Origin: Arthrobacter halodurans
GTDB lineage: Bacteria > Actinomycetota > Actinomycetes > Actinomycetales > Micrococcaceae
Assembly: GCF_041877255.1 (NCBI RefSeq)
Contig: NZ_JBHDLJ010000016.1
Location: 31,789-55,788, forward strand
Reading direction: 5' to 3'
DNA length: 24,000 bases
Below, piece by piece: positions 7,810-23,644 of the stretch (its first letter is position 1; each line of letters opens with the position of its first letter). The notes under the pieces are model-generated. The model was not told the DNA's origin and ran no database searches. It saw nothing but the letters and a program-made list of their open reading frames with translations. Made by a program: the position numbers and the translations under genes.

Positions 7810-8881
7810 GGGCCAGGTCCACTGGACCGACAGCCTGAGTTGGGCCGGCGAGCGCGCGCGCCAGATCCTGCTGCTGCTGGTCCTCGCGGCGGTGCTGGTC
7901 TACGGGCTGCTCAAGGTCACGCTCGTGGTCATCCCGGTGTTGCTGGCGCTGATCCTGGCCGCGGCCACCACCCCGCTGGTGCGCTGGTTGCGGCACCGCG
8001 GGTGGCGGGAAACGCCGGCGACCACCGGCACGTTCCTGGCGCTCATCGCGGTCTTCGCCGGCGTCGTGGCGGGCGTCGTGCTCACCATCCGCAGCGAATG
8101 GTCCACGCTGGCCGAGCGCGCCAGCCGGCGGTTCGACGAACTCGCGGCGGTGCTGCAGGACGGCCCGCTGCCCGTCGACGAGGCATCGCTCGAGAACCTC
8201 GGGACCGCCGCGCGGGACTTCGCCACCAGCAGCGCCGCCGGCGGGCGGGCGACCGACAGCCTGTTCGTCGCCACCGAGCTGCTCACCGGCTTCATCCTCA
8301 TGGCGGTGGTCCTCTTCTTCCTGCTCAAGGACGGGCACCGGATCTGGGCGTTCTGCCTCATCCCCTTCCGCGGCCGGCAGCGCGCCAAGATGCGCCTTGC
8401 CGGGATGGCGGGCATCGACGTGCTCGGTGGGTACGTCCGCGGCACCGCGATCGTCGCGCTCGTCGACGCCGTGCTGATCGGCGCCGCGCTCTTCGTCCTC
8501 CAGGTCCCGCTGGCCGCGCCGCTCGCCGTCGTCGTGTTCGTCGGCGCGTTCATCCCGCTGATCGGCGCCACGGCGGCGGGCGTCCTGGCGGCGGTCGTCG
8601 CTCTCGTCGCCAACGGGCCGGTCGTGGCGCTCATCGTCGCCGCCGTCGTCGTGCTGGTCAACCAGCTGGAGGGCAACCTGCTCCAGCCCGTGGTGATGGG
8701 CAAGACCCTGAGCGTCCACCCGCTGGTCATCCTGCTCGCGCTGACGGCCGGCACCGTCCTGGCCGGGATCATCGGCGCCATCCTGTCGGTGCCGCTCACC
8801 GCCGTCGCCTGGGCGATCGCGAAGATCTGGATCGGCGACCGCTTCGGTGCGCGCGCGTCGGCCGCGGGCGCGGACGGCTAG
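7697..8881 (+). CDS. AI-2E family transporter (PerM/YhhT-like)
   Basis: Multi-TM protein with typical family blocks (VIPVLLALILAAATTPLVRWLRHRG, FLLKDGHRIW, FIPLIGATAAGVLAAVVAL, NQLEGNLLQPVVMGKTLSVHPLVILLAL). The start is uncertain: TTG at 7697 or GTG at 7715. No later start codon occurs before TM1. Confidence 0.85.
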   Translation: MRTPSSVAAPKAAEPAPPPATTPDEARRREHHAAQERKGQVHWTDSLSWAGERARQILLLLVLAAVLVYGLLKVTLVVIPVLLALILAAATTPLVRWLRHRGWRETPATTGTFLALIAVFAGVVAGVVLTIRSEWSTLAERASRRFDELAAVLQDGPLPVDEASLENLGTAARDFATSSAAGGRATDSLFVATELLTGFILMAVVLFFLLKDGHRIWAFCLIPFRGRQRAKMRLAGMAGIDVLGGYVRGTAIVALVDAVLIGAALFVLQVPLAAPLAVVVFVGAFIPLIGATAAGVLAAVVALVANGPVVALIVAAVVVLVNQLEGNLLQPVVMGKTLSVHPLVILLALTAGTVLAGIIGAILSVPLTAVAWAIAKIWIGDRFGARASAAGADG

Positions 8882-13182: not shown

Positions 13183-13902
13183 CTACAGCAGGCCCCCGAC
13201 GACGTTCGCGATCCGTGGCGACGGGCTCACGCCGAACTCGGCCTTGAGCCGCTCGGAGAAGTCCTCGTACACGCGGATCATCTTGGCCTGGTCGCCCTCG
13301 GCCCGGTAGGTCTCGAGCAGGAGCCGGTGCGCGTTCTCCCGCCACGGGTCGATGTCGACGGCGCGGAGGGCGGCCTCCTTGGCCCGCTCGATCTCCCCCG
13401 CCGCGAGGCATTCCGCGGAGAGCCGTTCGAGGACGGTCAGCCGCATGCGTTCCCAGCGGTCCTGCTCCGCCAGCACCCAGTCCTCGTACCAGCCCGGCAA
13501 CAGTTCGGCGTCGCTCAGCAGCGCCAGCAGCTCGCCGCGTTCGCGGGATCCCCGGGAGACGTCCGCGGCATGGGCGCGACGGCGGATGTCGTCGGCGTCC
13601 ACCACGACGTCGGCGGACAGGGCCATCGGCTGCATCCCGCCGCCGGGGACCAGGCCGCCGGAAAGGAGCCCCGGCAGCTGGTGGTTGATGGTCCAAATGG
13701 TCTCCCGCAGGCTGCCCGTGGCCTGCTTCTCCGTGCTGTTGGGCCAGAGGAGCCCGGCCAGGAGGGCCCGCGGCTGTGGTCCCCGCAGCGCGAGGGCCGT
13801 GATCAGGCGCTGCTGCCGAAGTGTGACCTTGACGGGTTTGCGGCGGTGCAGCAGGCGCCACGTGCCGACGATCTCGACGTCCCAAGACTGTGTGTTCATC
13901 AT
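13183..13902 (-). CDS. SARP/AfsR-family transcriptional activator (OmpR-type winged helix plus BTAD domain)
   Basis: 239 aa. The N-terminus has the SARP DNA-binding pattern (VEIVGTWRLLHRRKPVKVTLRQQRLITALALRGPQPRALLAGLLWP...SLRETIWTINHQLP). The C-terminal BTAD part reads ELLPGWYEDWVLAEQDRWERMRL...IDPWRENAHRLLLETYRAEGDQAKMIRVYEDFSERLKAEFGVSPSP. Confidence 0.85.
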   Translation of the reverse strand: MMNTQSWDVEIVGTWRLLHRRKPVKVTLRQQRLITALALRGPQPRALLAGLLWPNSTEKQATGSLRETIWTINHQLPGLLSGGLVPGGGMQPMALSADVVVDADDIRRRAHAADVSRGSRERGELLALLSDAELLPGWYEDWVLAEQDRWERMRLTVLERLSAECLAAGEIERAKEAALRAVDIDPWRENAHRLLLETYRAEGDQAKMIRVYEDFSERLKAEFGVSPSPRIANVVGGLL

Positions 13903-14066
13903 TCAATGCCCCAAGCGATATCCAGCGTCGTCCTGCCAGCCGTCCGGCGCGCGCTCCCCAGGCGCCCGTGGAGGTAGAAATTTCCCGCTCATCCTTCACC
14001 ATCCAGCATTGGCAGGGACCGGACCAAAGTCAACAGTTGTGAAGGCCGTGACGCAACACGCGGGTA

Positions 14067-14110
14067 ATAACGCACGGATAACAGCCGTGTAACGGGAGAG
14101 AGGTTCAACT
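14067..14110 (+). promoter_or_regulatory. candidate SARP operator and promoter upstream of the aspartate kinase gene
   Basis: Three direct repeats ATAACG (14067), ATAACA (14078) and GTAACG (14089) sit at exact 11-bp spacing, followed by TCAACT at 14105-14110. The same layout recurs at 15574-15617. The region lies 46-89 bp upstream of the ATG at 14156, in a lower-GC divergent intergenic region. Confidence 0.55.
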
Positions 14111-14155
14111 GCAAGTGCATTGACAAGCATTAAACACGGGGACCAGGAGATAGCC

Positions 14156-15559
14156 ATGCCGTACATCGCCCACTCAAGCAGTTCCGGGCCTACGGCCCAC
14201 CCTCTCGGCGCTGCGGAGGGCACGCTTCCCCTGGGCCGGGCGAGCATCGTGGTGCAGAAGTTCGGCGGGTCGTCCGTCGCCGACGCGACGGCGATCCGGC
14301 GCGTCGCCCGGAGGGTGCTCCAGACCCACCAGTCCGGCCACCCGGTCGTCGTCGTCGTCTCCGCCATGGGCGACACCACCGACGAGCTGCTGGACCTGGC
14401 GGCGCGCGTGACCGACACGCCGAAGGCCCGCGAGCTCGACCTGCTGCTCTCCAGCGGCGAGCACGTCTCCGCTTCCCTGCTCGCCCTCGCGCTCGCGGAC
14501 CTGGGCGCGCGGGCGCGGACCTTCACGGGGGCCGACACGGGCCTGCTCACGGACGACACGCACGGCACGGCCCACGTGGTCTCCGTCGACCCGCGCCGCA
14601 TCCGGGCCGCGATCGAGCGCGGCGAGATCCCGATCGTCGCCGGATTCCAGGGGAGGTCCCGGAGGACACGCGAGGTCACCACGCTCGGCCGCGGGGGGTC
14701 CGACATCACGGCCATCGCCCTCGCCGCCGCCCTCAACGCCTCGGTGTGCGAGATCTTCACGGACGTCGACGGGGTGTTCACCGCGGATCCCCGCGTGGTC
14801 CCCACGGCCCGCAAGATCGACACGATCTCCAGCGAGGCGATGCTCGAGCTCGCGGCCTGCGGGGCCAAGATCCTGCACGTGCGCTGCGTCGAGTACGCGC
14901 GGCGCTTCGGGGTCACCCTCCACGTCCGCTCCTCGTTCACGCCGGGCGAGGGCACGGTGGTCCTTCCCGGCGCACCGGCGGTCCTGGTCGATCCGACGGG
15001 CAAGGCGCCCGAGGACGGGATCGTGTCCGCCATCGCCGTGGAGCGCTCGACGGCGAAGATCACCCTCGGCGGCGTCCCCGACGTCACCGCGGCCGCTGCC
15101 CTGCTGGCGGGCGTGGCCGCCCGGGCGAGGCTGCGGATCGACATGGTCGTCCAGCGACCCGCCGCCGGGGACGGGGACCACGCGAGCATCGCCTTCACCG
15201 TTCCCGCGGCGGACGGGCGGCACGTCATGGACGAGCTGGCCACGCGCCGGCCGGTCGCGCGCTTCCGGTCGCTGCACTACGACGACCGCGTGGGGATCCT
15301 GTCGCTCGTGGGCCACGGCATCCGCCACGACGCCGCACTCTCGTCCCGCTTCTTCCGCTCGCTCGCGGAGGCCGGTGTCAACATCGACGTAATTTCCGCA
15401 TGCGAGTCGCGCGTCAGCGTGATGGTCGATGAGGGTTCGCTGGACGTCGCCTGCGAGGCGCTGGCGCGGGCCTTCCCCGGCGGCCCGCCGAGGGACCGCC
15501 AGCCGGGACGCGCCCCGTCCCACGCGGCGGGCCGCATCCACGCGCCGGCGGCCGGTTAG
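14156..15559 (+). CDS. ask: aspartate kinase (cluster-situated paralog)
   Basis: ATG at 14156 after CCAGGAGA. Kinase core motifs are VVQKFGGSSV, VVVVSAMGDTTDELL, LLSSGEHVSASLLALAL, LGRGGSDITAIALAAAL, TDVDGVFTADPRVVP and AACGAKILHVRCVEYA. Two ACT-like regions follow. The protein also has a ~30-aa N-terminal and a ~30-aa C-terminal extension. 467 aa. Confidence 0.9.
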   Translation: MPYIAHSSSSGPTAHPLGAAEGTLPLGRASIVVQKFGGSSVADATAIRRVARRVLQTHQSGHPVVVVVSAMGDTTDELLDLAARVTDTPKARELDLLLSSGEHVSASLLALALADLGARARTFTGADTGLLTDDTHGTAHVVSVDPRRIRAAIERGEIPIVAGFQGRSRRTREVTTLGRGGSDITAIALAAALNASVCEIFTDVDGVFTADPRVVPTARKIDTISSEAMLELAACGAKILHVRCVEYARRFGVTLHVRSSFTPGEGTVVLPGAPAVLVDPTGKAPEDGIVSAIAVERSTAKITLGGVPDVTAAAALLAGVAARARLRIDMVVQRPAAGDGDHASIAFTVPAADGRHVMDELATRRPVARFRSLHYDDRVGILSLVGHGIRHDAALSSRFFRSLAEAGVNIDVISACESRVSVMVDEGSLDVACEALARAFPGGPPRDRQPGRAPSHAAGRIHAPAAG

Positions 15560-15573
15560 GCGGGCGCCCGGAA

Positions 15574-15617
15574 CCAACGCACCGATAACGCCGCAATAAC
15601 GCCGCCGTCCATCAAAT
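15574..15617 (+). promoter_or_regulatory. candidate SARP operator and promoter upstream of the transaminase-synthetase pair
   Basis: Three direct repeats CCAACG (15574), ATAACG (15585) and ATAACG (15596) sit at exact 11-bp spacing, followed by TCAAAT at 15612-15617. The offset from the third repeat is 14 nt, the same as at 14067-14110. The block AACGCAC(C/G)GATAAC is shared between the two sites. Confidence 0.55.
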
Positions 15618-15718
15618 GAAGGCTTGGCGGTCCGTCCCCGGGGAGGGGCGAACCGCTCGGCAGCTCCAGCCAGCGTCGAAGGAAGTCGGGGGAAACCCGA
15701 CGCAAGGAGGAAACCACC

Positions 15719-17110
15719 ATGACCGCACAACCCGAAGTCGCCACCCTGGCCGGCCTCACGGCCCCGGACGTCTCGGGCCCCGTGCCCGGGCCGAAGTCCG
15801 CGCAGATGCTCGCGCGGCAGGCGGCGCGCGAATCGAACGCGCGCAGCTACCCGCGGCGCCTGCCCATCGCCATCGACGAGGCGCACGGGAGCTTCGTGCG
15901 CGACGTCGACGGCAACGTCTTCATCGACTTCCTTGCCGGTGCCGGCGTGCTGTCCCTCGGGCACAACCATCCCGAACTCGTGGCCGTCGCCACGGAACAG
16001 CTCGGCAGGCTCACCCACGGGTTGGACTTCCCCACGCCGGCAAAGGAGGCGTTCACCGACGCCCAACTGTCGATGCTGCCCGCGGCCATGCGCGAACGCA
16101 CGAAGATCCACTTCTGCGGCCCGACCGGCGCCAACGCCGTCGACGCCGCGGTCAAGCTCTGCAAGACGGCCACCGGACGGGGCGACATCGTGGCGTTCCG
16201 GGGTGGCTTCCACGGGGCCAGCGCCGTCGGCATGGCCCTCACCGGGCTGGTCGAGCAGAAGGCCCCGGTCCCCAACGGCGTTCCCGGCGTGCACTTCTTC
16301 CCGTTCCCGTATGCCGCCCGCCCCCCGTTCGGCGGGACCCCGGAGGATTGCGGCCGGCTTTGCGCCGACTACTTCGAAAACGCGCTGCGGGACGACCATG
16401 GCGGGGTGGCCCTGCCCGCCGCGGTGATCCTTGAACTGGTCCAGGGCGAAGGCGGCGTCATCCCCGCCCCCGTGGAATTCGTCCAGCGCGTCAGGGCCGT
16501 GACCCGGGAGCTGGGGATTCCGCTGATCGTCGACGAGGTGCAGACCGGCTGCGGGCGCACCGGCACCTGGTTCGCGTTCGAGCAGTACGGGATCGAACCG
16601 GACGTCATCGTGGCCTCCAAGGCCCTCAGCGGCCTCGGAACACCGGTCGCGCTGATCATGTACGACAAGTCGTTGGACGTCTGGGCCCCCGGCGCGCACA
16701 CCGGAACGTTCCGCGGCAACCAGCTGGCCTTCGCCGCGGGCGCCGAGGCCGTGCGGATCTTCCGGCGCGACCGCGTGCTGGAGAACGTGCGGGAACAGGG
16801 CGAGCGCATCGGCGGGCTCTTCGGCGCCCTCCGCGACCTGCCGTGGGTCCTCGAGGTGCGCGGCCGGGGCATGATGTGGGGCATCGAACTGGTCGACCCG
16901 CTCGACGGGCAGCCCGACGGCGCGCTGGCCCGCGCGGTCCAGGACCGCCTGTTGCAGGAGGGCCTCATCCTGGAGACCGGTGGCCGCGGCGGCGGCGTGG
17001 TGCGCCTCCTGCCGCCCCTGAACTCCAGCTCCGAGGTGGTCGAGACGGCCTGCCGGCTGATCATCGACGCCGTGACGGAGCTCGGGGCGGAGCGGGCGGT
17101 CGCGCCATGA
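15719..17110 (+). CDS. ectB: diaminobutyrate--2-oxoglutarate transaminase (EctB/Dat/PvdH family, class III PLP aminotransferase)
   Basis: ATG after AAGGAGG. 463 aa. The protein is collinear with EctB along its length: SNARSYPRRLPIAI, IDFLAGAGVLSLGHNHP, HGLDFPTPAK, GPTGANAVDAAVKL, LVQGEGGV, DEVQTGCGRTG, the PLP-lysine region ASKALSG and HTGTFRGNQLAF. Confidence 0.88.
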   Translation: MTAQPEVATLAGLTAPDVSGPVPGPKSAQMLARQAARESNARSYPRRLPIAIDEAHGSFVRDVDGNVFIDFLAGAGVLSLGHNHPELVAVATEQLGRLTHGLDFPTPAKEAFTDAQLSMLPAAMRERTKIHFCGPTGANAVDAAVKLCKTATGRGDIVAFRGGFHGASAVGMALTGLVEQKAPVPNGVPGVHFFPFPYAARPPFGGTPEDCGRLCADYFENALRDDHGGVALPAAVILELVQGEGGVIPAPVEFVQRVRAVTRELGIPLIVDEVQTGCGRTGTWFAFEQYGIEPDVIVASKALSGLGTPVALIMYDKSLDVWAPGAHTGTFRGNQLAFAAGAEAVRIFRRDRVLENVREQGERIGGLFGALRDLPWVLEVRGRGMMWGIELVDPLDGQPDGALARAVQDRLLQEGLILETGGRGGGVVRLLPPLNSSSEVVETACRLIIDAVTELGAERAVAP

Positions 17111-20100
17111 CGATGCTCGCCGGTGGCCCCGGGGACCAGCTCCAGGGGACCGTCCTGGGGGCCCCGGAGGCCGACGACGCGATCCGGTGGAGGCCGGGGC
17201 AACGTCTGGACACACTCTTCGAGGAGCGGTGCGACGCCCTGGCGGCCGCGGGGAGGTCCGCGCAGCTCGCCGTCGACTCCCCGGACGCCACCCTCACGTA
17301 CGGCGAGCTGGACGCGGCGGCCAACCGGCTGGCCCGCTACCTCGCGGCGCAAGGCGCGGGTCCCGGCACGAGGGTCGCGCTGCTCTTCGACCAGCCCGTC
17401 CGCTCCTACGTGGCGCTCCTGGCCGTGCTGAAGACGGGCGCGGCCTACGTCCCGCTCGACGCGGGCTTCCCGGAGGACCGGCTCGCCTACATCGTCGGGG
17501 ACGCGGGCGTCAGCCTGGTGCTGACACTGTCCCACCTCCGTGCGAAGCTGCCGCGGATCGCCGCGCGGACGCTGTGCCTGGACGAGGAGGACCCGGCGGT
17601 CGCCCGCCAGGATCCCTCCCGGCCGGCGCGGGAGGCCGTCGGTGCGACCGCCGGCGAGCTCGCCTACATCATCTACACCTCCGGGTCCACGGGACGCCCC
17701 AAGGGGGTCGCCGTGGACCACCCGAGCATCTGCAACTTCGTGCTCGTGGCCGCGGAAACCTACGGCTACGAACCCGGGGACCGCGTCTACCAAGGCATGA
17801 CGATCGCGTTCGACTTCTCGGTCGAGGAGATCTGGGTGCCGTGGATGGTGGGGGCCACGCTGGTGCCCAAGCCCGGGGGCTCCGCGCTCCTGGGCATGGA
17901 CTTGAGCGACTACCTGCAGGAGCGCCGCATCACCGCCATGTGCTGCGTCCCGACGCTGCTGGCCACCCTGGACGAGGACCTCCCCGGGCTGCGCTTCCTG
18001 CTGGTCTCCGGCGAAGCCTGCCCGAAGGACCTGGTCACGCGCTGGCACCGGCCGGGGCGCCGCTTCCTGAACGTCTACGGCCCCACCGAGGCCACGGTGA
18101 CCGCGACGTGGGACGTGGTCCATCCGGACAAGCCCGTCACGCTCGGCGTGCCGCTGCCGACGTACTCCGCCGTGATCCTGGACCCCGAGGAGGCGCGAGC
18201 GCTGCCCGCGGGCGAGCTCGGGGAGATCGGCATCGCCGGGATCGGCCTCGCCCGGGGCTACGTCAACCGCGACGATCTCACCGAGCGGGCGTTCATCCCC
18301 GACTTCCTCGGGATCGAGAACAACCCGTCGGGGAGGATCTACCGCACCGGCGACCTGGGGCGGTTCACGCCCGAGGGCACCATCGAGTACCTCGGCCGGA
18401 TCGACACGCAGGTGAAGATCCGCGGCTACCGGATCGAGCTGTCGGAGATCGAGTCGGTGCTCCTCGAGCACCCCGCGATCGCCCTCGCCGTCGTGGACAC
18501 CCACAGCCCGGCGCCCGGCGTCGTCGAGCTCGCCGCCTACTACACCCTGCGCGGGGACGCCGCGGGGCTGGACGAGGCCGAGCTGGACCGCGCGCTCCGC
18601 GAGCGACTGCCCGCGTACATGGTGCCCGCCTACCTCGACCGGCTCGACACCATCCCCCTGATGCCCAGCGGCAAGGCGGACCGGAAGAACCTTCCGGCCC
18701 CGACCGCCCGGCGCGCGGGCGGCAACGCGGCCGCGTACGTGCCCCCGGAGACGGATGCCGAACGCGCGCTGGCCGAGCAGCTGGGCGCCGTCCTGGGCCT
18801 AGAGCGGCCCTCGGTCGACGCGCACTTCTTCGACGACCTCGGGGCCAACTCGCTGCTGATGGCCCACTTCTGCGCCGGGATCCGCAGGCACACGGATCTT
18901 CCCTCGGCGGCCATGCAGGACGTGTACCAGCAGCCCACGCTCCGGCGCCTCGCGGCGATGCTGGAGGCCGAGCGGATGGCCGCCGAGCTCGCGTCCGCGG
19001 GCGCGGAACCGGCCGCGCCTCCCGCCCCCCGGCCGGCCCCGAGCTCGCTCAAATACACGCTCACGGGCGCGGCGCAGCTGCTGTTCTTCCTCGGCTACAC
19101 CACCTACGCGGCGCTCCTGCTGGTCTTCTCCTTCACGTGGGTCTCCGCGGCCCCGACGCTGTTCGAGCTCTGGCTGCGCAGCATCGCGTTCGGCGCCGGC
19201 ATGTTCGTGGTCCTGACGATCACGCCCGTGCTGTTCAAGTGGGCCCTTGTGGGGCGCATGAAGCAACAGGTGATCCCACTCTGGGGGCTGGGCTACCTGA
19301 GGTTCTGGATCGTCCGGCTGGTGACCCGGGCCAGCCCCATGGCCGCGTTCGTCGGATCCCCGCTCTATGTCGTCTACCTCCGAATGCTCGGCGCCAGGAT
19401 CGGCAAGGGCGTCTCCATCTTCTCCCGCATCGTGCCCGCCTGCCCCGACCTCATCAGCATCGGCGAGGGCACCGTCATCCACAAGAACGCCGTTATGCTC
19501 GGCTACCGCGTCCGCCGCGGCGTGATCGAGACGGGCCCGGTCACGATCGGCAACAACGTCCTGGTGTCCCAGAAGACGGTCTTCGACATCGGCACCGCCA
19601 TGGGCGACGACTCGCAACTGGGCCACGCGTCCGCGCTGCACGAGGGGCAGTCGGTGCCCGCCGGCGAGGTCTGGCACGGATCGCCCGCCGTCCCCGCGGC
19701 CACGAGCTACGCGCGGATCCGGCCCCGGCGCTGCGGGACCCGCCGCCGCGTGGTCTTCAGCGCCTTCCAGCTCTTCAACCGGCTGGTGCTGGTCGTGCCC
19801 GGCGGCCTAATCCTGCTGGCCGGGCTGCTGCCGGGCTACCTTGAGACGGGGCACCTCGAACCCACGAACCCGCTGTTCTACCTCGACGCGGCGCTCCTGT
19901 CGCTGGCGCTCTTCATCGGCGGCATGGTCAGCGGCCTAGTCGCCGTGCTCACGGTCCCGCGGCTGCTCAACCTCGCGACGCCGGCCGAGACCACCTTCCC
20001 GCTCTACGGGATCCGCTACGCGCTCCACCGCATGGTCCTGGCGCTGACAAACATCAAGCCGTACCTGACACTCTTCGGGGACAGCTCGTACATCGTCCAC

Positions 20101-21192
20101 TACCTCAAGGCGTTGGGGTGGGACCTCGGCAAGAAGATCGACCAAACGGGGTCCAACTTCGGTCCCGGCGTGGCCCACGACTCCCCGTACCTCAGCAAGG
20201 TCGGCTACGGCACCATGGTCTCCGACGGCCTGAACATGATGAACGCGGAGTACACGAGCACGTCGTTCCGGCTCTCGGTCGTGGAGATCGGCGACCGCAA
20301 CTTCCTGGGCAACGACATCACCTGGCCCATCGCGTCCCGGGTCGGCGAGAACTGCCTCCTGGGCACCAAGGTCCTCGTGCCCATCGACGGGCCGGTCCGC
20401 CGCGACGTCGGGCTCCTCGGCTCGCCGGCGTTCGAGATCCCCCGCTCCGTCCAGCGTGACAGCCAGTTCGACGACCTGAAGCTGGAGGACGCCAAGAGCC
20501 GGCTGCTCCCGGCCAAGAACCGGCACAACATCGGTTCCATGGCCCTGTATCTGGCCCTGCGCTGGTTCCAGCTCTTCTCGGCGACCGTCATCGGCGCGCT
20601 CTCCGTCGCGCTCTACGACGTGCTGGGCGTGCTCGCCGTCGGCGCCGGGACGCTCATCTTCCTGGTCTATGGCATCCTCCTGTCCGCCTTCGCGGAGCGG
20701 GCGGTGCTGGGGTTCGGGCGGCTCGAGCCGCGGTTCTGCTCCATCTACGACCCCTACTTCTGGCACCACGAGCGCCTGTGGAAGCTGCTCGGCGGGGCGC
20801 CGTTCACGGGGACCCCCTTCCGGCCCATGGTGTGGCGCCTCTTCGGCGTGAAGGTCGGCAAGCGCCTCTACGACGGCGGAGGCGGCCTGGTGGAAAAGAC
20901 CCTGGTCTCGATCGGCGACGACTGCGAGCTGAACGAGGCGTCCATCCTGCAGGGGCACTCCCTGGAGGACGGAACCTTCAAGTCGGGCCACATCACGCTC
21001 GGGAACGGCTGCACGATCGGGGTCGCCGCCTTCATCCACTACGGGGTGAACCTGCAGGACGGCGCGGAAGTGGCGGCTGACTCGTTCCTGATGAAGGGCG
21101 AGGACCTGCCGGTGGACAGCCTCTTCGGCGGCAACCCGGCCCGCGAGCTGGATCCGGCCCGGCAGCTGCGGCGCGTGGCGGCGACCGCCTAG
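17107..21192 (+). CDS. Pls-like single-module NRPS (homopoly(amino acid) synthetase architecture): A domain, PCP, then three repeats of two TM helices plus a hexapeptide-repeat domain
   Basis: The ATG at 17107 overlaps the transaminase stop as ATGA. 1361 aa. A-domain cores are YGELDAAANRLA, LAYIIYTSGSTGRPKGV, FDFSVEE, NVYGPTE, GELGIAGIGLARGY, YRTGDL, GRIDTQVKIRGYRIEL and PSGKADRK. The PCP carries DDLGANSL. The region downstream has six hydrophobic helices in three pairs, alternating with three left-handed-beta-helix/acetyltransferase-like domains. Confidence 0.9.
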   Translation: MTMLAGGPGDQLQGTVLGAPEADDAIRWRPGQRLDTLFEERCDALAAAGRSAQLAVDSPDATLTYGELDAAANRLARYLAAQGAGPGTRVALLFDQPVRSYVALLAVLKTGAAYVPLDAGFPEDRLAYIVGDAGVSLVLTLSHLRAKLPRIAARTLCLDEEDPAVARQDPSRPAREAVGATAGELAYIIYTSGSTGRPKGVAVDHPSICNFVLVAAETYGYEPGDRVYQGMTIAFDFSVEEIWVPWMVGATLVPKPGGSALLGMDLSDYLQERRITAMCCVPTLLATLDEDLPGLRFLLVSGEACPKDLVTRWHRPGRRFLNVYGPTEATVTATWDVVHPDKPVTLGVPLPTYSAVILDPEEARALPAGELGEIGIAGIGLARGYVNRDDLTERAFIPDFLGIENNPSGRIYRTGDLGRFTPEGTIEYLGRIDTQVKIRGYRIELSEIESVLLEHPAIALAVVDTHSPAPGVVELAAYYTLRGDAAGLDEAELDRALRERLPAYMVPAYLDRLDTIPLMPSGKADRKNLPAPTARRAGGNAAAYVPPETDAERALAEQLGAVLGLERPSVDAHFFDDLGANSLLMAHFCAGIRRHTDLPSAAMQDVYQQPTLRRLAAMLEAERMAAELASAGAEPAAPPAPRPAPSSLKYTLTGAAQLLFFLGYTTYAALLLVFSFTWVSAAPTLFELWLRSIAFGAGMFVVLTITPVLFKWALVGRMKQQVIPLWGLGYLRFWIVRLVTRASPMAAFVGSPLYVVYLRMLGARIGKGVSIFSRIVPACPDLISIGEGTVIHKNAVMLGYRVRRGVIETGPVTIGNNVLVSQKTVFDIGTAMGDDSQLGHASALHEGQSVPAGEVWHGSPAVPAATSYARIRPRRCGTRRRVVFSAFQLFNRLVLVVPGGLILLAGLLPGYLETGHLEPTNPLFYLDAALLSLALFIGGMVSGLVAVLTVPRLLNLATPAETTFPLYGIRYALHRMVLALTNIKPYLTLFGDSSYIVHYLKALGWDLGKKIDQTGSNFGPGVAHDSPYLSKVGYGTMVSDGLNMMNAEYTSTSFRLSVVEIGDRNFLGNDITWPIASRVGENCLLGTKVLVPIDGPVRRDVGLLGSPAFEIPRSVQRDSQFDDLKLEDAKSRLLPAKNRHNIGSMALYLALRWFQLFSATVIGALSVALYDVLGVLAVGAGTLIFLVYGILLSAFAERAVLGFGRLEPRFCSIYDPYFWHHERLWKLLGGAPFTGTPFRPMVWRLFGVKVGKRLYDGGGGLVEKTLVSIGDDCELNEASILQGHSLEDGTFKSGHITLGNGCTIGVAAFIHYGVNLQDGAEVAADSFLMKGEDLPVDSLFGGNPARELDPARQLRRVAATA
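17209..18700 (+). other. adenylation (A) domain of the synthetase
   Basis: Core motifs A1-A10 were read directly from the translation. The A10 lysine lies in PSGKADRK (nt 18664-18687). Boundaries are approximate. Confidence 0.85.
18736..18966 (+). other. peptidyl carrier (T/PCP) domain of the synthetase
   Basis: ETDAERALAEQLGAVLGLERPSVDAHFFDDLGANSLLMAHF. The predicted phosphopantetheine-attachment Ser codon is tcg at 18850-18852 (residue 582). Confidence 0.8.
19045..21189 (+). other. membrane-embedded C-terminal polymerisation region (TM1-2, C1, TM3-4, C2, TM5-6, C3)
   Basis: TM pairs lie at about 19060-19260, 19750-19970 and 20527-20715. Hexapeptide-repeat domains lie at about 19381-19690 (LGARIGKGVSIF...VWHGSPA), 20101-20445 (LGWDLGKKIDQTG...LLGSPAFEIPR) and 20833-21150 (FGVKVGKRLY...LFGGNPAREL). 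No HHxxxDG condensation motif and no GxSxG thioesterase domain were seen. Confidence 0.75.
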
Positions 21193-22271
21193 TCGTCCGT
21201 CCCGGCCTCGCCCAAGGCAAGTGTCGCGTGCATGAGGGCGTCCGCCATCGTCTCCAGGACCTCCGGGTCGACGTTGCCCAACGTGTCGCAACTGCGGTGG
21301 TAGCAGGAGTCGTACTTGTCGCCGGGCGTACCGCCGAACGCCGCGGCCTCGGGGTCGGACTTGGACCCCTCGTCCCCCGTGAAGAGGCCGCCGGACGGGA
21401 TGTCCCGGTCCAGGAAGGCCTGGTAGTCGGACCCGCCGTCGAACTCCGTGGGTCCCGCCAGGACGCCCGCGGCGGAGAAGTGGTCCAGGAACACCCGCTC
21501 GATCTCCCCGGAGCCGTTCGGGAGGCGGCCGCCATAGTCCGACCCGTCGCCGTCGTAGACCAGGACGACGCCGTTCGGCGAGCCCACCATGTCCAGGTTC
21601 AGGTACGCCAGGTGCTGTTCGGCCTGCTCGTCGGAGAGCCCGTCGACATAGTGCTCCGAGCCGTACAGGCCGTCCTCCTCGCCACCCCAGAAGGCGAAGC
21701 GGATCCTGTTGGGCGGGACCGTGCCCGATGCGGCCAGCCGCACGGCCACCTCCAGCACCGCCGCGACCCCGCTGCCGTTGTCGTTGATGCCCGGGCCCCG
21801 CGCCACCGAGTCCAAGTGCGCCCCGAGGACGACCGTGCGGGAGGCGTCGCCGGCCGTGTCGGCGACGATGTTGAACGTCTCGATGTCCCTGTCGCGCCGG
21901 CCCTCGTGGCTGAATCCCTGGCGCACCGGGTCGTAGCCGGCGCCGCGCAGGCGGTCCTCCACGTACGCCGCCGAGGCCTCGTAGCCTCCGGTGCCCGACG
22001 CCCGGTTCCCGCCGTTGGCGTCGGCCGCCTCCTGCAGGGCCTCGAGATGCGCGCGCAGCCCCGCTTCGCCCACGCCGGCCCGCAGCTCCGCGCTGTCCGG
22101 GGCCGTGCCGATCTCGATCCCGGGCCGGGACGAGCACCCGGTCAGCACGAGTGACGCCGTCGCGGCGGCGGCGAGCCAGGGGGCGGCGGCGTGCCAGGGG
22201 GCGGCGGCGTGCCAGGGGGCGGCGGGGGCGCGGCGGCGTGTCGACCGTCGGTGGGTGGGGCGGCGTGTCAT
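21189..22271 (-). CDS. M28-family zinc aminopeptidase, predicted lipoprotein
   Basis: 360 aa, starting at an ATG. The signal peptide has a lipobox LVLTGCSS. M28 metal-ligand blocks are present (VVLGAHLDSV, GINDNGSGVAAVLE, FAFWGGEEDGLYGSEHY, LNLDMVGSPN), as is the C-terminal CYHRSCD. Its stop shares the tetranucleotide CTAG with the synthetase stop. Confidence 0.88.
   Translation of the reverse strand: MTRRPTHRRSTRRRAPAAPWHAAAPWHAAAPWLAAAATASLVLTGCSSRPGIEIGTAPDSAELRAGVGEAGLRAHLEALQEAADANGGNRASGTGGYEASAAYVEDRLRGAGYDPVRQGFSHEGRRDRDIETFNIVADTAGDASRTVVLGAHLDSVARGPGINDNGSGVAAVLEVAVRLAASGTVPPNRIRFAFWGGEEDGLYGSEHYVDGLSDEQAEQHLAYLNLDMVGSPNGVVLVYDGDGSDYGGRLPNGSGEIERVFLDHFSAAGVLAGPTEFDGGSDYQAFLDRDIPSGGLFTGDEGSKSDPEAAAFGGTPGDKYDSCYHRSCDTLGNVDPEVLETMADALMHATLALGEAGTDD
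22176..22225. repeat. 18-bp tandem repeat (2 perfect units plus a partial third) inside the peptidase signal-peptide coding region
   Basis: ccagggggcggcggcgtg occurs at 22176-22193 and again at 22194-22211, and 14 nt of a third copy follow from 22212. On the minus strand it encodes AAPWHA-AAPWHA-AAPWLA. Confidence 0.85.
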
Positions 22272-22497: not shown

Positions 22498-22971
22498 ATG
22501 ATCGACGCGCTGCAGGACTTCACCTCGTCGCTGGCCCCCGTGTTGCAGTGGGCGGGGGTGATGCTGGTGGCCGCGATCCCGTTCGTCGAGTCCTACTTCG
22601 GTTCGGTGATCGGCGTGCTCGCCGGAATGAACCCCGCGATAGCGATCGTCGCGGCCATCGTGGGCAACGTGGCCTCGATGCTGGTCTTCGTGCAGAGCGC
22701 GCACGGCGTGCGGTCCAAGGTGGTTGGCGGCAAGGAGCCCCGCGAACCCTCCGCCCGTCGGCAGAAGCTGCGCGCGCAGTTCGACAAGTACGGGGTTGCC
22801 GGCGTGAGCCTCCTGGGCCAGACCATCCTGCCCAGCCAGATCACCTCGGCCGCGATGGTCTCTTTCGGGGCGTCGAAAAACTCCGTGATCCTGTGGCAGT
22901 GCATTTCCATCGTGATCTGGGGCGTTGCCTTCGGCGTCCTCGCCGTCCTCGGCGTCTCGCTCGTCGGCTGA
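22498..22971 (+). CDS. small membrane protein, putative small multidrug export family (Sm_multidrug_ex-like)
   Basis: ATG at 22498 after GAGAGGA. Only the last 157 codons of the 326-aa track ORF look real. There are four hydrophobic segments. AAIPFVESYFGSVIGVLAGMNPAIAIVAAIVGNVASMLVF resembles the family signature. Confidence 0.6.
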   Translation: MIDALQDFTSSLAPVLQWAGVMLVAAIPFVESYFGSVIGVLAGMNPAIAIVAAIVGNVASMLVFVQSAHGVRSKVVGGKEPREPSARRQKLRAQFDKYGVAGVSLLGQTILPSQITSAAMVSFGASKNSVILWQCISIVIWGVAFGVLAVLGVSLVG

Positions 22972-23071
22972 TCGGCCGACCGCGCCGCGGGCGCGCGGAC
23001 TTGCTAGGGTCGAGACCGTAGTCCCCGCCCGGCACCAGCCGACGGGCGGTCCCACCAGCGGAAGGGCGAGC

Positions 23072-23644
23072 ATGGACGCGGTCGCCGATCTCAGCGATCC
23101 GGCACTGGTCGCCCGGGCCCAATCGGGCGATCTCGACGCCTTCGAGGAACTCGTGCGCAGGTACCAGCGCGGGATCCTGCGGTTCTGCCGCGGCATGTTG
23201 GGCAACGGGCCGGACGCGGAGGACGCCGTCCAGGACGTCCTGCTCACCGCGTGGCGACGGTTACCGACCCTACGCGCGACGGAGGCGGCCTCCACCTGGC
23301 TCTACCGGATCGCCTCCCACCGCTGCATCGACGCCCTCAGGAAGCGGCGGCCCGACGGCGGCGACCCCGCCGAGCGCGAGGCGTCGCAGACCGGCAGCGA
23401 GGCCAGCCGACGCCTCCCCGCGGGGCCCGAGGGCGCGGCGGAAACACGGCTGGCCCTCGACGCGTTGCGCGGGCATCTCGCCGCACTGCCCGACACCCAG
23501 CGCGAAGCCTGGACCCTGCGCGAGGTCCAGGGAATGAGCTATCAGGACATCGCGCGGATCACCGGAGAACCACTAGCCACCGTGCGCGGGCGCATCGCCC
23601 GCGCACGCACGGCCCTGGCCGAAAGGATGGACTCGTGGAAATGA
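23072..23644 (+). CDS. ECF-type RNA polymerase sigma-70 family factor
   Basis: ATG at 23072. 190 aa. Region 2 reads FEELVRRYQRGILRFCRGMLGNGPDAEDAVQDVLLTAWRRL...WLYRIASHRCIDALR. Region 4 reads LPDTQREAWTLREVQGMSYQDIARITGEPLATVRGRIARAR. Confidence 0.9.
   Translation: MDAVADLSDPALVARAQSGDLDAFEELVRRYQRGILRFCRGMLGNGPDAEDAVQDVLLTAWRRLPTLRATEAASTWLYRIASHRCIDALRKRRPDGGDPAEREASQTGSEASRRLPAGPEGAAETRLALDALRGHLAALPDTQREAWTLREVQGMSYQDIARITGEPLATVRGRIARARTALAERMDSWK

Follow-up and report, generated by a model that had tools for sequence, protein, structure and literature searches.

In a 24,000-nucleotide stretch of Arthrobacter halodurans DNA (contig NZ_JBHDLJ010000016.1, positions 31,789 to 55,788; hereafter the window), the gene of a regulator from the family of SARPs (Streptomyces antibiotic regulatory proteins) and the aspartate kinase gene ask are transcribed divergently from an intergenic region that carries three RTAACR repeats in strict 11-bp phase, followed by a -10-like hexamer. 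With a probability that we place at roughly 75%, these repeats are the operator of the divergently encoded SARP, which would bind them and activate rather than repress transcription by a mechanism of the `sigma adaptation' type, and would thereby control a biosynthetic cluster for a poly-diaminobutyrate-like product. The idea of a SARP operator was put forward in a first-pass annotation of the same DNA, and every prediction from it that could be computed, namely the conservation, the regulator fold, the 11-bp period, the distance to the -10 element and the absence of a -35 element, held in the present analysis.

The intergenic region comprises 253 bp (13903-14155) between the SARP-like gene (13183-13902, minus strand) and the ATG of ask at 14156 on the plus strand. 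Within it, ATAACG (14067-14072), ATAACA (14078-14083) and GTAACG (14089-14094) follow one another on the same strand in exact 11-bp steps, one helical turn each, and these three words and the hexamer TCAACT lie precisely where the first-pass annotation had located them. Its extension of the array back to 14051 has to be withdrawn, as 14051-14066 contains no in-phase repeat and GTGACG at 14048 begins 19 bp before the first repeat and is hence out of phase. An exact-seed repeat finder (seed 6) missed the array, the copies of which share merely 4-5 exact bases. In the window, the triplet TAAC-N7-TAAC-N7-TAAC occurs once, with no occurrence in 100 dinucleotide shuffles, and the pair TAAC-N7-TAAC occurs three times, confined to two intergenic regions, with an expectation of 0.00. 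The RTAACR hexamer as such is not enriched (six copies versus 4.9 expected), and five of the six copies fall within the two phased arrays, so that the unusual part is the arrangement and not the count.

The strictest test against chance was to shuffle the AT-richer 253-bp spacer alone and to count any 4-mer present three times; such a triplet appeared in 0.5% of the shuffles at a spacing of 11 bp, in 1.4% at 10-12 bp and in 8.7% at 5-24 bp. Taken by itself, the array is therefore suggestive. The unenriched hexamer count and the 8.7% of local shuffles that give some 4-mer triplet at some spacing are what a chance repeat in an AT-richer intergenic region would have in its favour, and this explanation is refuted by the conservation in orthologues, the spacing spectrum, the second site and the family-wide matrix described below, which leave it a negligible probability. 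As far as sequence can decide, it is the conservation that is decisive in the case for a pattern that did not arise by chance. The intergenic region also contains GCATTGGCA at 14006-14014, overlapping the -10 element of the regulator promoter, and GCATTGACA at 14117-14125, overlapping the predicted ask start site; the two lie 111 bp apart and are probably paired by chance, GCATTGACA not being kept in orthologues. A search of 13850-15800 against Rfam (E <= 1) returned no RNA family, and a riboswitch or leader in either 5' region is thus not supported.

Focusing on orthologous loci, a scan of one genome per species provided 80 loci that encode relatives of the regulator with 38-55% identity. The order of divergent SARP, ask and aminotransferase genes is kept in six of them (L001, L005, L008, L015, L016 and L017), and four further loci are decayed copies, with a truncated kinase gene in L004, transposases in L003 and an internally deleted ask in L013 and L014. 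For footprinting, the intergenic regions between SARP and ask from 10 loci, orthologous or decayed (SARP identity 46-55%), were aligned. All 10 spacers contain two or three R-T-R-A-C repeats at 11 bp and then T[CG]AACTG, which begins 16 bp after the last repeat begins. No variation is seen in the TAAC cores of repeats 2 and 3 (in repeat 3 every letter is invariant but the second A, which is nearly so) or in the T.A.C of the hexamer, and the ribosome-binding site with the ATG is the sole other conserved block; the distal repeat in some orthologues is GTGAC. Loss of the repeats from orthologous loci, which the first-pass annotation had named as evidence that would speak against its own proposal, was not found, repeats and hexamer alike being conserved. 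The decayed copies were observed at L003 5180-5764 and 2895-3794, at L004 5158-5727 and in the upstream regions of L013 and L014, where the regulator and the operator persist beside truncated or internally deleted ask or transposase genes, and the cluster appears to be patchy and often eroded.

The pattern is comparable throughout the regulator subfamily. Same-strand TAAC pairs at spacings of 4 to 40 were counted in a pool of 978 kb from the 80 subfamily loci plus the window, and a spacing of 11 bp was found for 111 pairs and one of 22 bp, between the first and third repeats of triplets, for 24, versus 0-12 pairs at other spacings, whereas eight control words of equal composition gave no peak at 11 bp. 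The alignment of 87 distinct sites on their last TAAC gives R-T-A-A-C-R as the repeat consensus; TCGAGxx-type heptamers are typical of many SARPs, although not of all, and the remark of the first-pass annotation that the repeat word is unlike this classical motif applies here and family-wide. Counted from the T of the last TAAC, the 87 sites have T at +15 in 47, A at +16 in 39, T at +20 in 68 and A at +27 in 41. When only 63 sites with a mutual identity of <60% beyond the cores are retained, T at +15 (57%) and T at +20 (73%) still stand out from about 15-20% at neighbouring offsets. The family pattern is a TAnnnT hexamer 8 bp after the heptamer repeat, with a predicted purine start 7 nt further, and about one third of the family sites have a third upstream repeat (TAAC at offset -22 in 17 of the 63 de-duplicated sites).

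These sites are concentrated beside the regulator genes: the density per kb per locus is 0.73 within 500 bp upstream of the SARP gene versus about 0.03 in the far flanks, an approximately 25-fold difference, and 32 of the 37 upstream sites face away from the SARP gene. Of the 69 full-length loci, 49 have one or more strict sites. A position weight matrix trained on the other loci, with the window excluded, gives 38.9 bits at 15597 and 36.7 bits at 14090 in the 24 kb, the shuffle maximum being 13, and no third site in the window passes the matrix.

As the crude caller based on GC content at third codon positions (GC3) was too insensitive for lower-GC genomes, the orientation of sites to genes in the other loci was judged from spot checks of open reading frames and Pfam domains alone. 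In these checks, the genes downstream of sites encode a non-specific endonuclease, astacin-like and S8 proteases, an alpha/beta hydrolase, a family 2 glycosyltransferase, an FG-GAP protein and a histidine kinase, and no nitrogen-assimilation gene was among the targets. The subfamily thus seems, from its sites, to control secreted hydrolases besides biosynthetic genes. Back-to-back TAAC arrays on opposite strands between divergent genes were observed in L073 (around 8174-8207) and likewise in L074, L079 and L066; the genes at such arrays encode an alpha/beta hydrolase and an astacin-like metalloprotease, and a further array precedes a non-specific endonuclease gene.

The divergent gene, which the first-pass annotation took for a SARP gene, encodes a BTAD protein on the minus strand, and the model of this protein has the full SARP fold. 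BTAD (PF03704, E = 2.5e-17, residues 122-234) is its sole Pfam domain, Trans_reg_C giving no match, and a profile of the family finds AfsR (8HVR_I) with E = 6.8e-14, the match spanning positions 9-237. The AlphaFold2 model, built from a 30-sequence alignment, has a predicted local distance difference test score of 92.3 and a predicted template modelling (TM) score of 0.86; its N-terminal part consists of strands 7-10, 16-19 and 93-95 and helices 28-40, 45-52 and 58-75, as in a winged helix. The top fold matches are to the SARP domain of AfsR in its transcription initiation complex (8K60_I), with TM scores of 0.77 and 0.74 over 243 columns, and EmbR (2FEZ) matches with a TM score of 0.77 over about 245 columns, the remaining matches being partial TPR. 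The predicted fold therefore has the architecture of an N-terminal OmpR-type winged helix followed by BTAD. The segments RQQRLI..LAL, LLWP and GSLR of the DNA-binding region vary very little within the subfamily, as would be expected if its members read a common DNA word; since the recognition helix and the repeat are both nearly invariant over the 80 loci, no covariation signal is possible. Relatives of the regulator were found in Arthrobacter, Zafaria, Crystallibacter, Sinomonas, Cryobacterium, Mycetocola and similar Micrococcales, and not in Streptomyces. In three loci (L010 5353-5720, L011 5374-5741 and L012 4429-4795) an orphan regulator gene lies directly 3' of the gene for transfer-messenger RNA, a classic integration hot spot, which suggests that the orphan regulator arrived on a genomic island.

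The regulator gene has an ordinary promoter of its own, the pattern of which, TTGAC[AT]-16/17-nAnnCT, precedes the regulator gene in 17 of 19 close relatives. As this promoter carries no TAAC repeats, there is no sign of autoregulation through the motif. It would nevertheless be conceivable that the SARP binds the repeats chiefly to regulate or repress its own divergent promoter and not ask, the site lying within the intergenic region common to both genes, on the upstream side of the SARP gene's -35 element and 34 bp from it. However, the repeats are oriented and phased to the hexamer on the ask side and not to the SARP promoter, which is complete by itself, and the design is found again at 15574-15617 without a regulator gene diverging from there, so that we regard this possibility as very unlikely.

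The distance from the start of repeat 3 to the start of TCAACT is 16 bp, and the same distance is found in every orthologue. The heptamer TAACGGG ends at 14096 and the hexamer starts at 14105, giving a gap of 8 bp, with a register that may be off by 2 bp given that the hexamer has no A at -11; the first-pass annotation had estimated 8-9 bp, and the family T's at +15 and +20 agree with the measured value. The -35 position of the ask promoter is occupied by CAGCCG, and a sigma-70 and terminator scan of 13800-14300 found nothing, which fits an activator-dependent promoter as a weak piece of evidence. In SARP promoters, as the first-pass annotation noted, the last repeat replaces a -35 element; the ask promoter has none, whereas the promoter of the regulator has one. 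A TTGACA at 14120 was considered as a -35 element and rejected, as it has no -10 element 16-19 bp downstream, is not conserved in orthologues and lies 3' of the predicted start. Many of the family sites likewise read T-n-n-A-C-T-G and not TAnnnT (TTTACT, TCTACT, TTGACT and TCCACT); this form stands at the -10 position at 14105-14112 of the window and in L034, L045, L051, L053, L062, L065, L066 and L072-L074. It is possible that the ask hexamer is a deliberately weak -10 element, with T at -12 and -7 alone, and that it is fully activator-dependent.

A different assignment of the hexamer would make T[CG]AACT the GAAC-like -35 element of an alternative sigma factor of the extracytoplasmic function (ECF) type and the repeats an upstream enhancer. 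TGAAC and TCAAC do resemble ECF -35 motifs, the hexamer has no A where one is expected at -11, and an ECF sigma gene is present in the window at 22925-23644. In L015-L017, however, a mere 24 nt, which include a GGGAGG ribosome-binding site, separate the hexamer from the ATG, and for this reason it cannot be a -35 element, as a spacer, a -10 element and a start site would not fit in between. Moreover, the same offset holds canonical TAnnnT hexamers family-wide (TACGAT, TATGTT and TACATT), and the orthologues have no conserved element 16-18 nt downstream, all of which makes an ECF promoter extremely unlikely.

Several observations weigh against a SARP operator with a -10 element at the hexamer. 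The profile of the N-terminal 108 residues of the regulator alone found nothing at E <= 1 among PDB sequences, and the OmpR-type winged-helix assignment thus comes from the predicted fold, the sequence being inconclusive; the link between the protein and the site comes from their co-location. The ask hexamer has C or G at the near-universal A position of -10 elements, and A is found at that position in under half of the family sites (39 of 87 at +16). The true -10 element may be the overlapping nACTGn, which resembles the CACTGT of the afsS -10 region (PMC10936776), in which case the gap would grow to 10 bp, or a different sigma factor may be involved. Finally, 20 of the 69 full-length loci have no strict TAAC pair, at least one high-GC metagenome contig (L184, 10.5 kb) has a perfect triple site and no SARP gene that could be found along its length, and GTAAC is compatible with gTnAc, the a-site of GlnR boxes, whose period is likewise 11 nt (PMC10235972).

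The last two points bear on the main rival reading, in which the array is a real operator of another head-to-tail winged-helix protein, most plausibly GlnR or another response regulator of the OmpR/PhoB family, through which nitrogen status would govern a nitrogen-rich polymer; the genes concerned indeed consume aspartate and amino groups. However, the sites are homotypic, and at the third repeat, which was unconstrained in the search, T (33) outnumbers A (21), giving TAAC again and not favouring GAAAC. The concentration of sites beside SARP genes and their orientation away from them, the targets spot-checked in other loci, with no nitrogen-assimilation gene, and the fixed distance to the -10 element, as in SARP promoters, likewise speak against it, and we consider a GlnR-type binder unlikely. 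A metagenome search with the pattern TAAC-N7-TAAC-N6-GTAACG-N10-T-N4-T matched at least 120 loci, mostly on 1-4 kb contigs. Among the matches listed, most are low-GC DNA with unrelated TGTAACG-type arrays and 15 have a GC content >= 0.58; a family SARP is present in one (L113) of those 15 listed. The outcome is uninformative and was weighed neither way. Low-GC contigs among the metagenome matches (L081-L200; for example L125, L130, L164, L123, L096 and L144) are rich in direct repeats of the TGTAACG type that also keep an 11-bp period and often precede GTTAC or a TAnnnT hexamer, and the binder of these repeats is possibly another family of head-to-tail winged-helix regulators.

For the SARP operator, the following mechanism may be proposed. 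Two or three SARP protomers would line up head to tail along a single face of the bound helix, at the place of the missing -35 element, and, by analogy with AfsR, would offer a docking surface to sigma region 4 and the RNA polymerase core; the polymerase would then open the weak -10-like T[CG]AACT and start near 14117. A second operator with its hexamer at 15574-15617 would drive the aminotransferase and Pls-like synthetase genes, so that one regulator would switch on both the supply of the precursor, from aspartate via aspartyl phosphate and aspartate semialdehyde to 2,4-diaminobutyrate (Dab), and its polymerization into a poly-diaminobutyrate-like cationic polymer. The gene of the regulator itself would be expressed from its ordinary -35/-10 promoter without such repeats.

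The second operator is located between the ask stop codon and the aminotransferase ATG at 15719, 102 nt before this ATG, with a predicted 5' leader of about 95 nt that has no Rfam match. The interval from ask to the aminotransferase gene holds an equivalent site in L001, L005 and L008 too, and in L015 a site precedes the separately placed synthetase gene. Judging from the second operator, ask and the aminotransferase-synthetase operon would constitute the regulon within the window. The gene order was derived from GC3 frame analysis together with Pfam and NCBIfam scans, and public gene calls (GCA_054511335.1) agree on an ask product of 467 aa and an aminotransferase of 463 aa. In the Ask protein, the canonical VVQKFGG motif is preceded by an N-terminal extension (14156-14248) of about 30 residues, the sequence of which varies in orthologues, with the start codon and the ribosome-binding site kept. 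The predicted product of the cluster is likely to be an L-Dab polymer or a related cationic polymer, and the M28 peptidase encoded next to the synthetase may be a polymer-degrading or self-protection enzyme. The coordinates of all features are collected in Table 1.

Table 1. Features of the SARP-ask region and the adjoining gene cluster (window coordinates).
Feature	Position	Strand	Details
SARP-family activator gene, 239 aa, proposed binder	13183..13902	-	Pfam BTAD; AfsR profile match; fold
Ordinary promoter of the regulator gene	14005..14033	-	-35 TTGACT 14033-14028, 17-bp spacer, -10 AATGCT 14010-14005
Repeat 1, ATAACGC, distal direct repeat	14067..14073	+	T 14068 predicted at -49
Repeat 2, ATAACAG	14078..14084	+	T 14079 predicted at -38; TAAC core invariant in the 10-sequence orthologue alignment
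Repeat 3, GTAACGG, promoter-proximal	14089..14095	+	T 14090 predicted at -27
-10-like hexamer TCAACT	14105..14110	+	Kept as T[CG]AACTG in orthologues; alternative overlapping register AACTGC 14107-14112
Predicted transcription start	14117 (+/-2 nt)	+	Predicted; A-enriched offset +27 in family sites (41/87)
ask, pathway-specific aspartate kinase, 467 aa	14156..15559	+	Pfam AA_kinase + ACT; NCBIfam aspartate kinase
Second operator (candidate)	15574..15601	+	CCAACG 15574 (degenerate), ATAACG 15585, ATAACG 15596; 11-bp steps; top matrix match
Second -10-like hexamer TCAAAT	15612..15617	+	16 bp from last repeat start; geometry identical to ask promoter
Diaminobutyrate-2-oxoglutarate transaminase	15719..17110	+	ATG 15719; overlaps synthetase start; NF005393 2.5e-153
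Pls/PosA-type single-module synthetase	17107..21192	+	TIGR02353, 4e-191
M28 peptidase	21189..22271	-	Convergent; overlaps synthetase end by 4 bp, tail to tail
ECF sigma factor gene	22925..23644

In a wider view, the Micrococcales may share a code in which a divergent SARP subfamily reads RTAACR at -27, -38 and sometimes -49 and drives, by AfsR-like sigma adaptation and often through T-n-n-A-C-T-G, biosynthetic clusters as well as genes for secreted nucleases, proteases and glycosyltransferases; we hold the odds of this generalization to be about even. If it is true, SARPs would be general promoter adaptors in non-streptomycete actinobacteria and not antibiotic-specific regulators. In the literature searched, we found no report that characterizes this SARP subfamily or SARPs in this lineage. 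For a SARP subfamily with annotated members in hundreds of genomes of the Arthrobacter group, the present analysis thus names a specific recognition sequence that can be put to the test, and the family-wide motif with its position weight matrix is a useful product in itself, as it allows regulons to be predicted from sequence alone. The sigma-adaptation geometry of AfsR, with its T's at -27 and -38, would be extended to a distant lineage with a different DNA word, which will be useful for understanding how SARP recognition helices read DNA.

Compared with known systems, the sites resemble GlnR boxes, which have the form gTnAc-n6-GaAAC with an 11-nt period and flank or overlap a poor -35 element (PMC10235972), in this period, in the head-to-tail binding of a winged helix at a poor -35 element that is proposed here and in the fit of GTAAC to the a-site. 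Unlike GlnR boxes, in which different a and b half-sites form 22-bp boxes of a global nitrogen regulon, the sites described here are homotypic, all being of the TAAC type, adjoin SARP genes and keep a fixed distance to the -10 element. The cluster itself resembles the poly-D-Dab genes pddA-D that Streptoalloteichus hindustanus carries (PMC8225329) in its aspartate kinase (PddD-like), diaminobutyrate-2-oxoglutarate transaminase (PddC-like) and membrane-bound single-module Pls-type synthetase (PddA-like). In contrast to pdd, where the DapF-like Dab racemase PddB is translationally coupled to the synthetase, no such racemase is coupled to it here, and no DapF-like domain was found among the predicted genes scanned, which makes an L-Dab polymer more likely; in addition, an M28 peptidase gene is convergent with the synthetase gene here. 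We came across no publication that describes a SARP, or an operator for one, in the case of pdd.

The closest likeness is to the promoters of Streptomyces SARPs, for which the 3' repeat and the -10 element stand 8 bp apart and the period is 11 or 22 bp, and at the afsS promoter Arg92 of AfsR reads T-27 and T-38 of the afs box base-specifically (PMC10936776). As in the promoters of ActII-ORF4, DnrI and AfsR at afsS (cryo-EM structures 8HVR, 8K60 and 8JKE), 11-bp direct repeats replace or overlap the -35 element and the proximal repeat is about 8 bp from a weak -10 element, and the positions predicted for the invariant T's, -27 and -38, agree with the afs box; the regulator, like those of Streptomyces, is cluster-situated and has the fold of a winged helix-turn-helix with BTAD. 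The differences from the Streptomyces systems are that the hosts are Micrococcaceae and Microbacteriaceae, that the N-terminal domain is too divergent for a Pfam or PDB sequence match, that the hexamer is T[CG]AACTG without an A at -11, that relatives of the regulator precede secreted hydrolase genes besides biosynthetic ones, and that the core is RTAACR and not TCGAGxx or an afs/PHO-like box. The lack of TCGAGxx counts against a shared specificity and not against a shared mechanism. The proposed mechanism is a known one; what is new is the repeat word and the bacterial group in which it is found.

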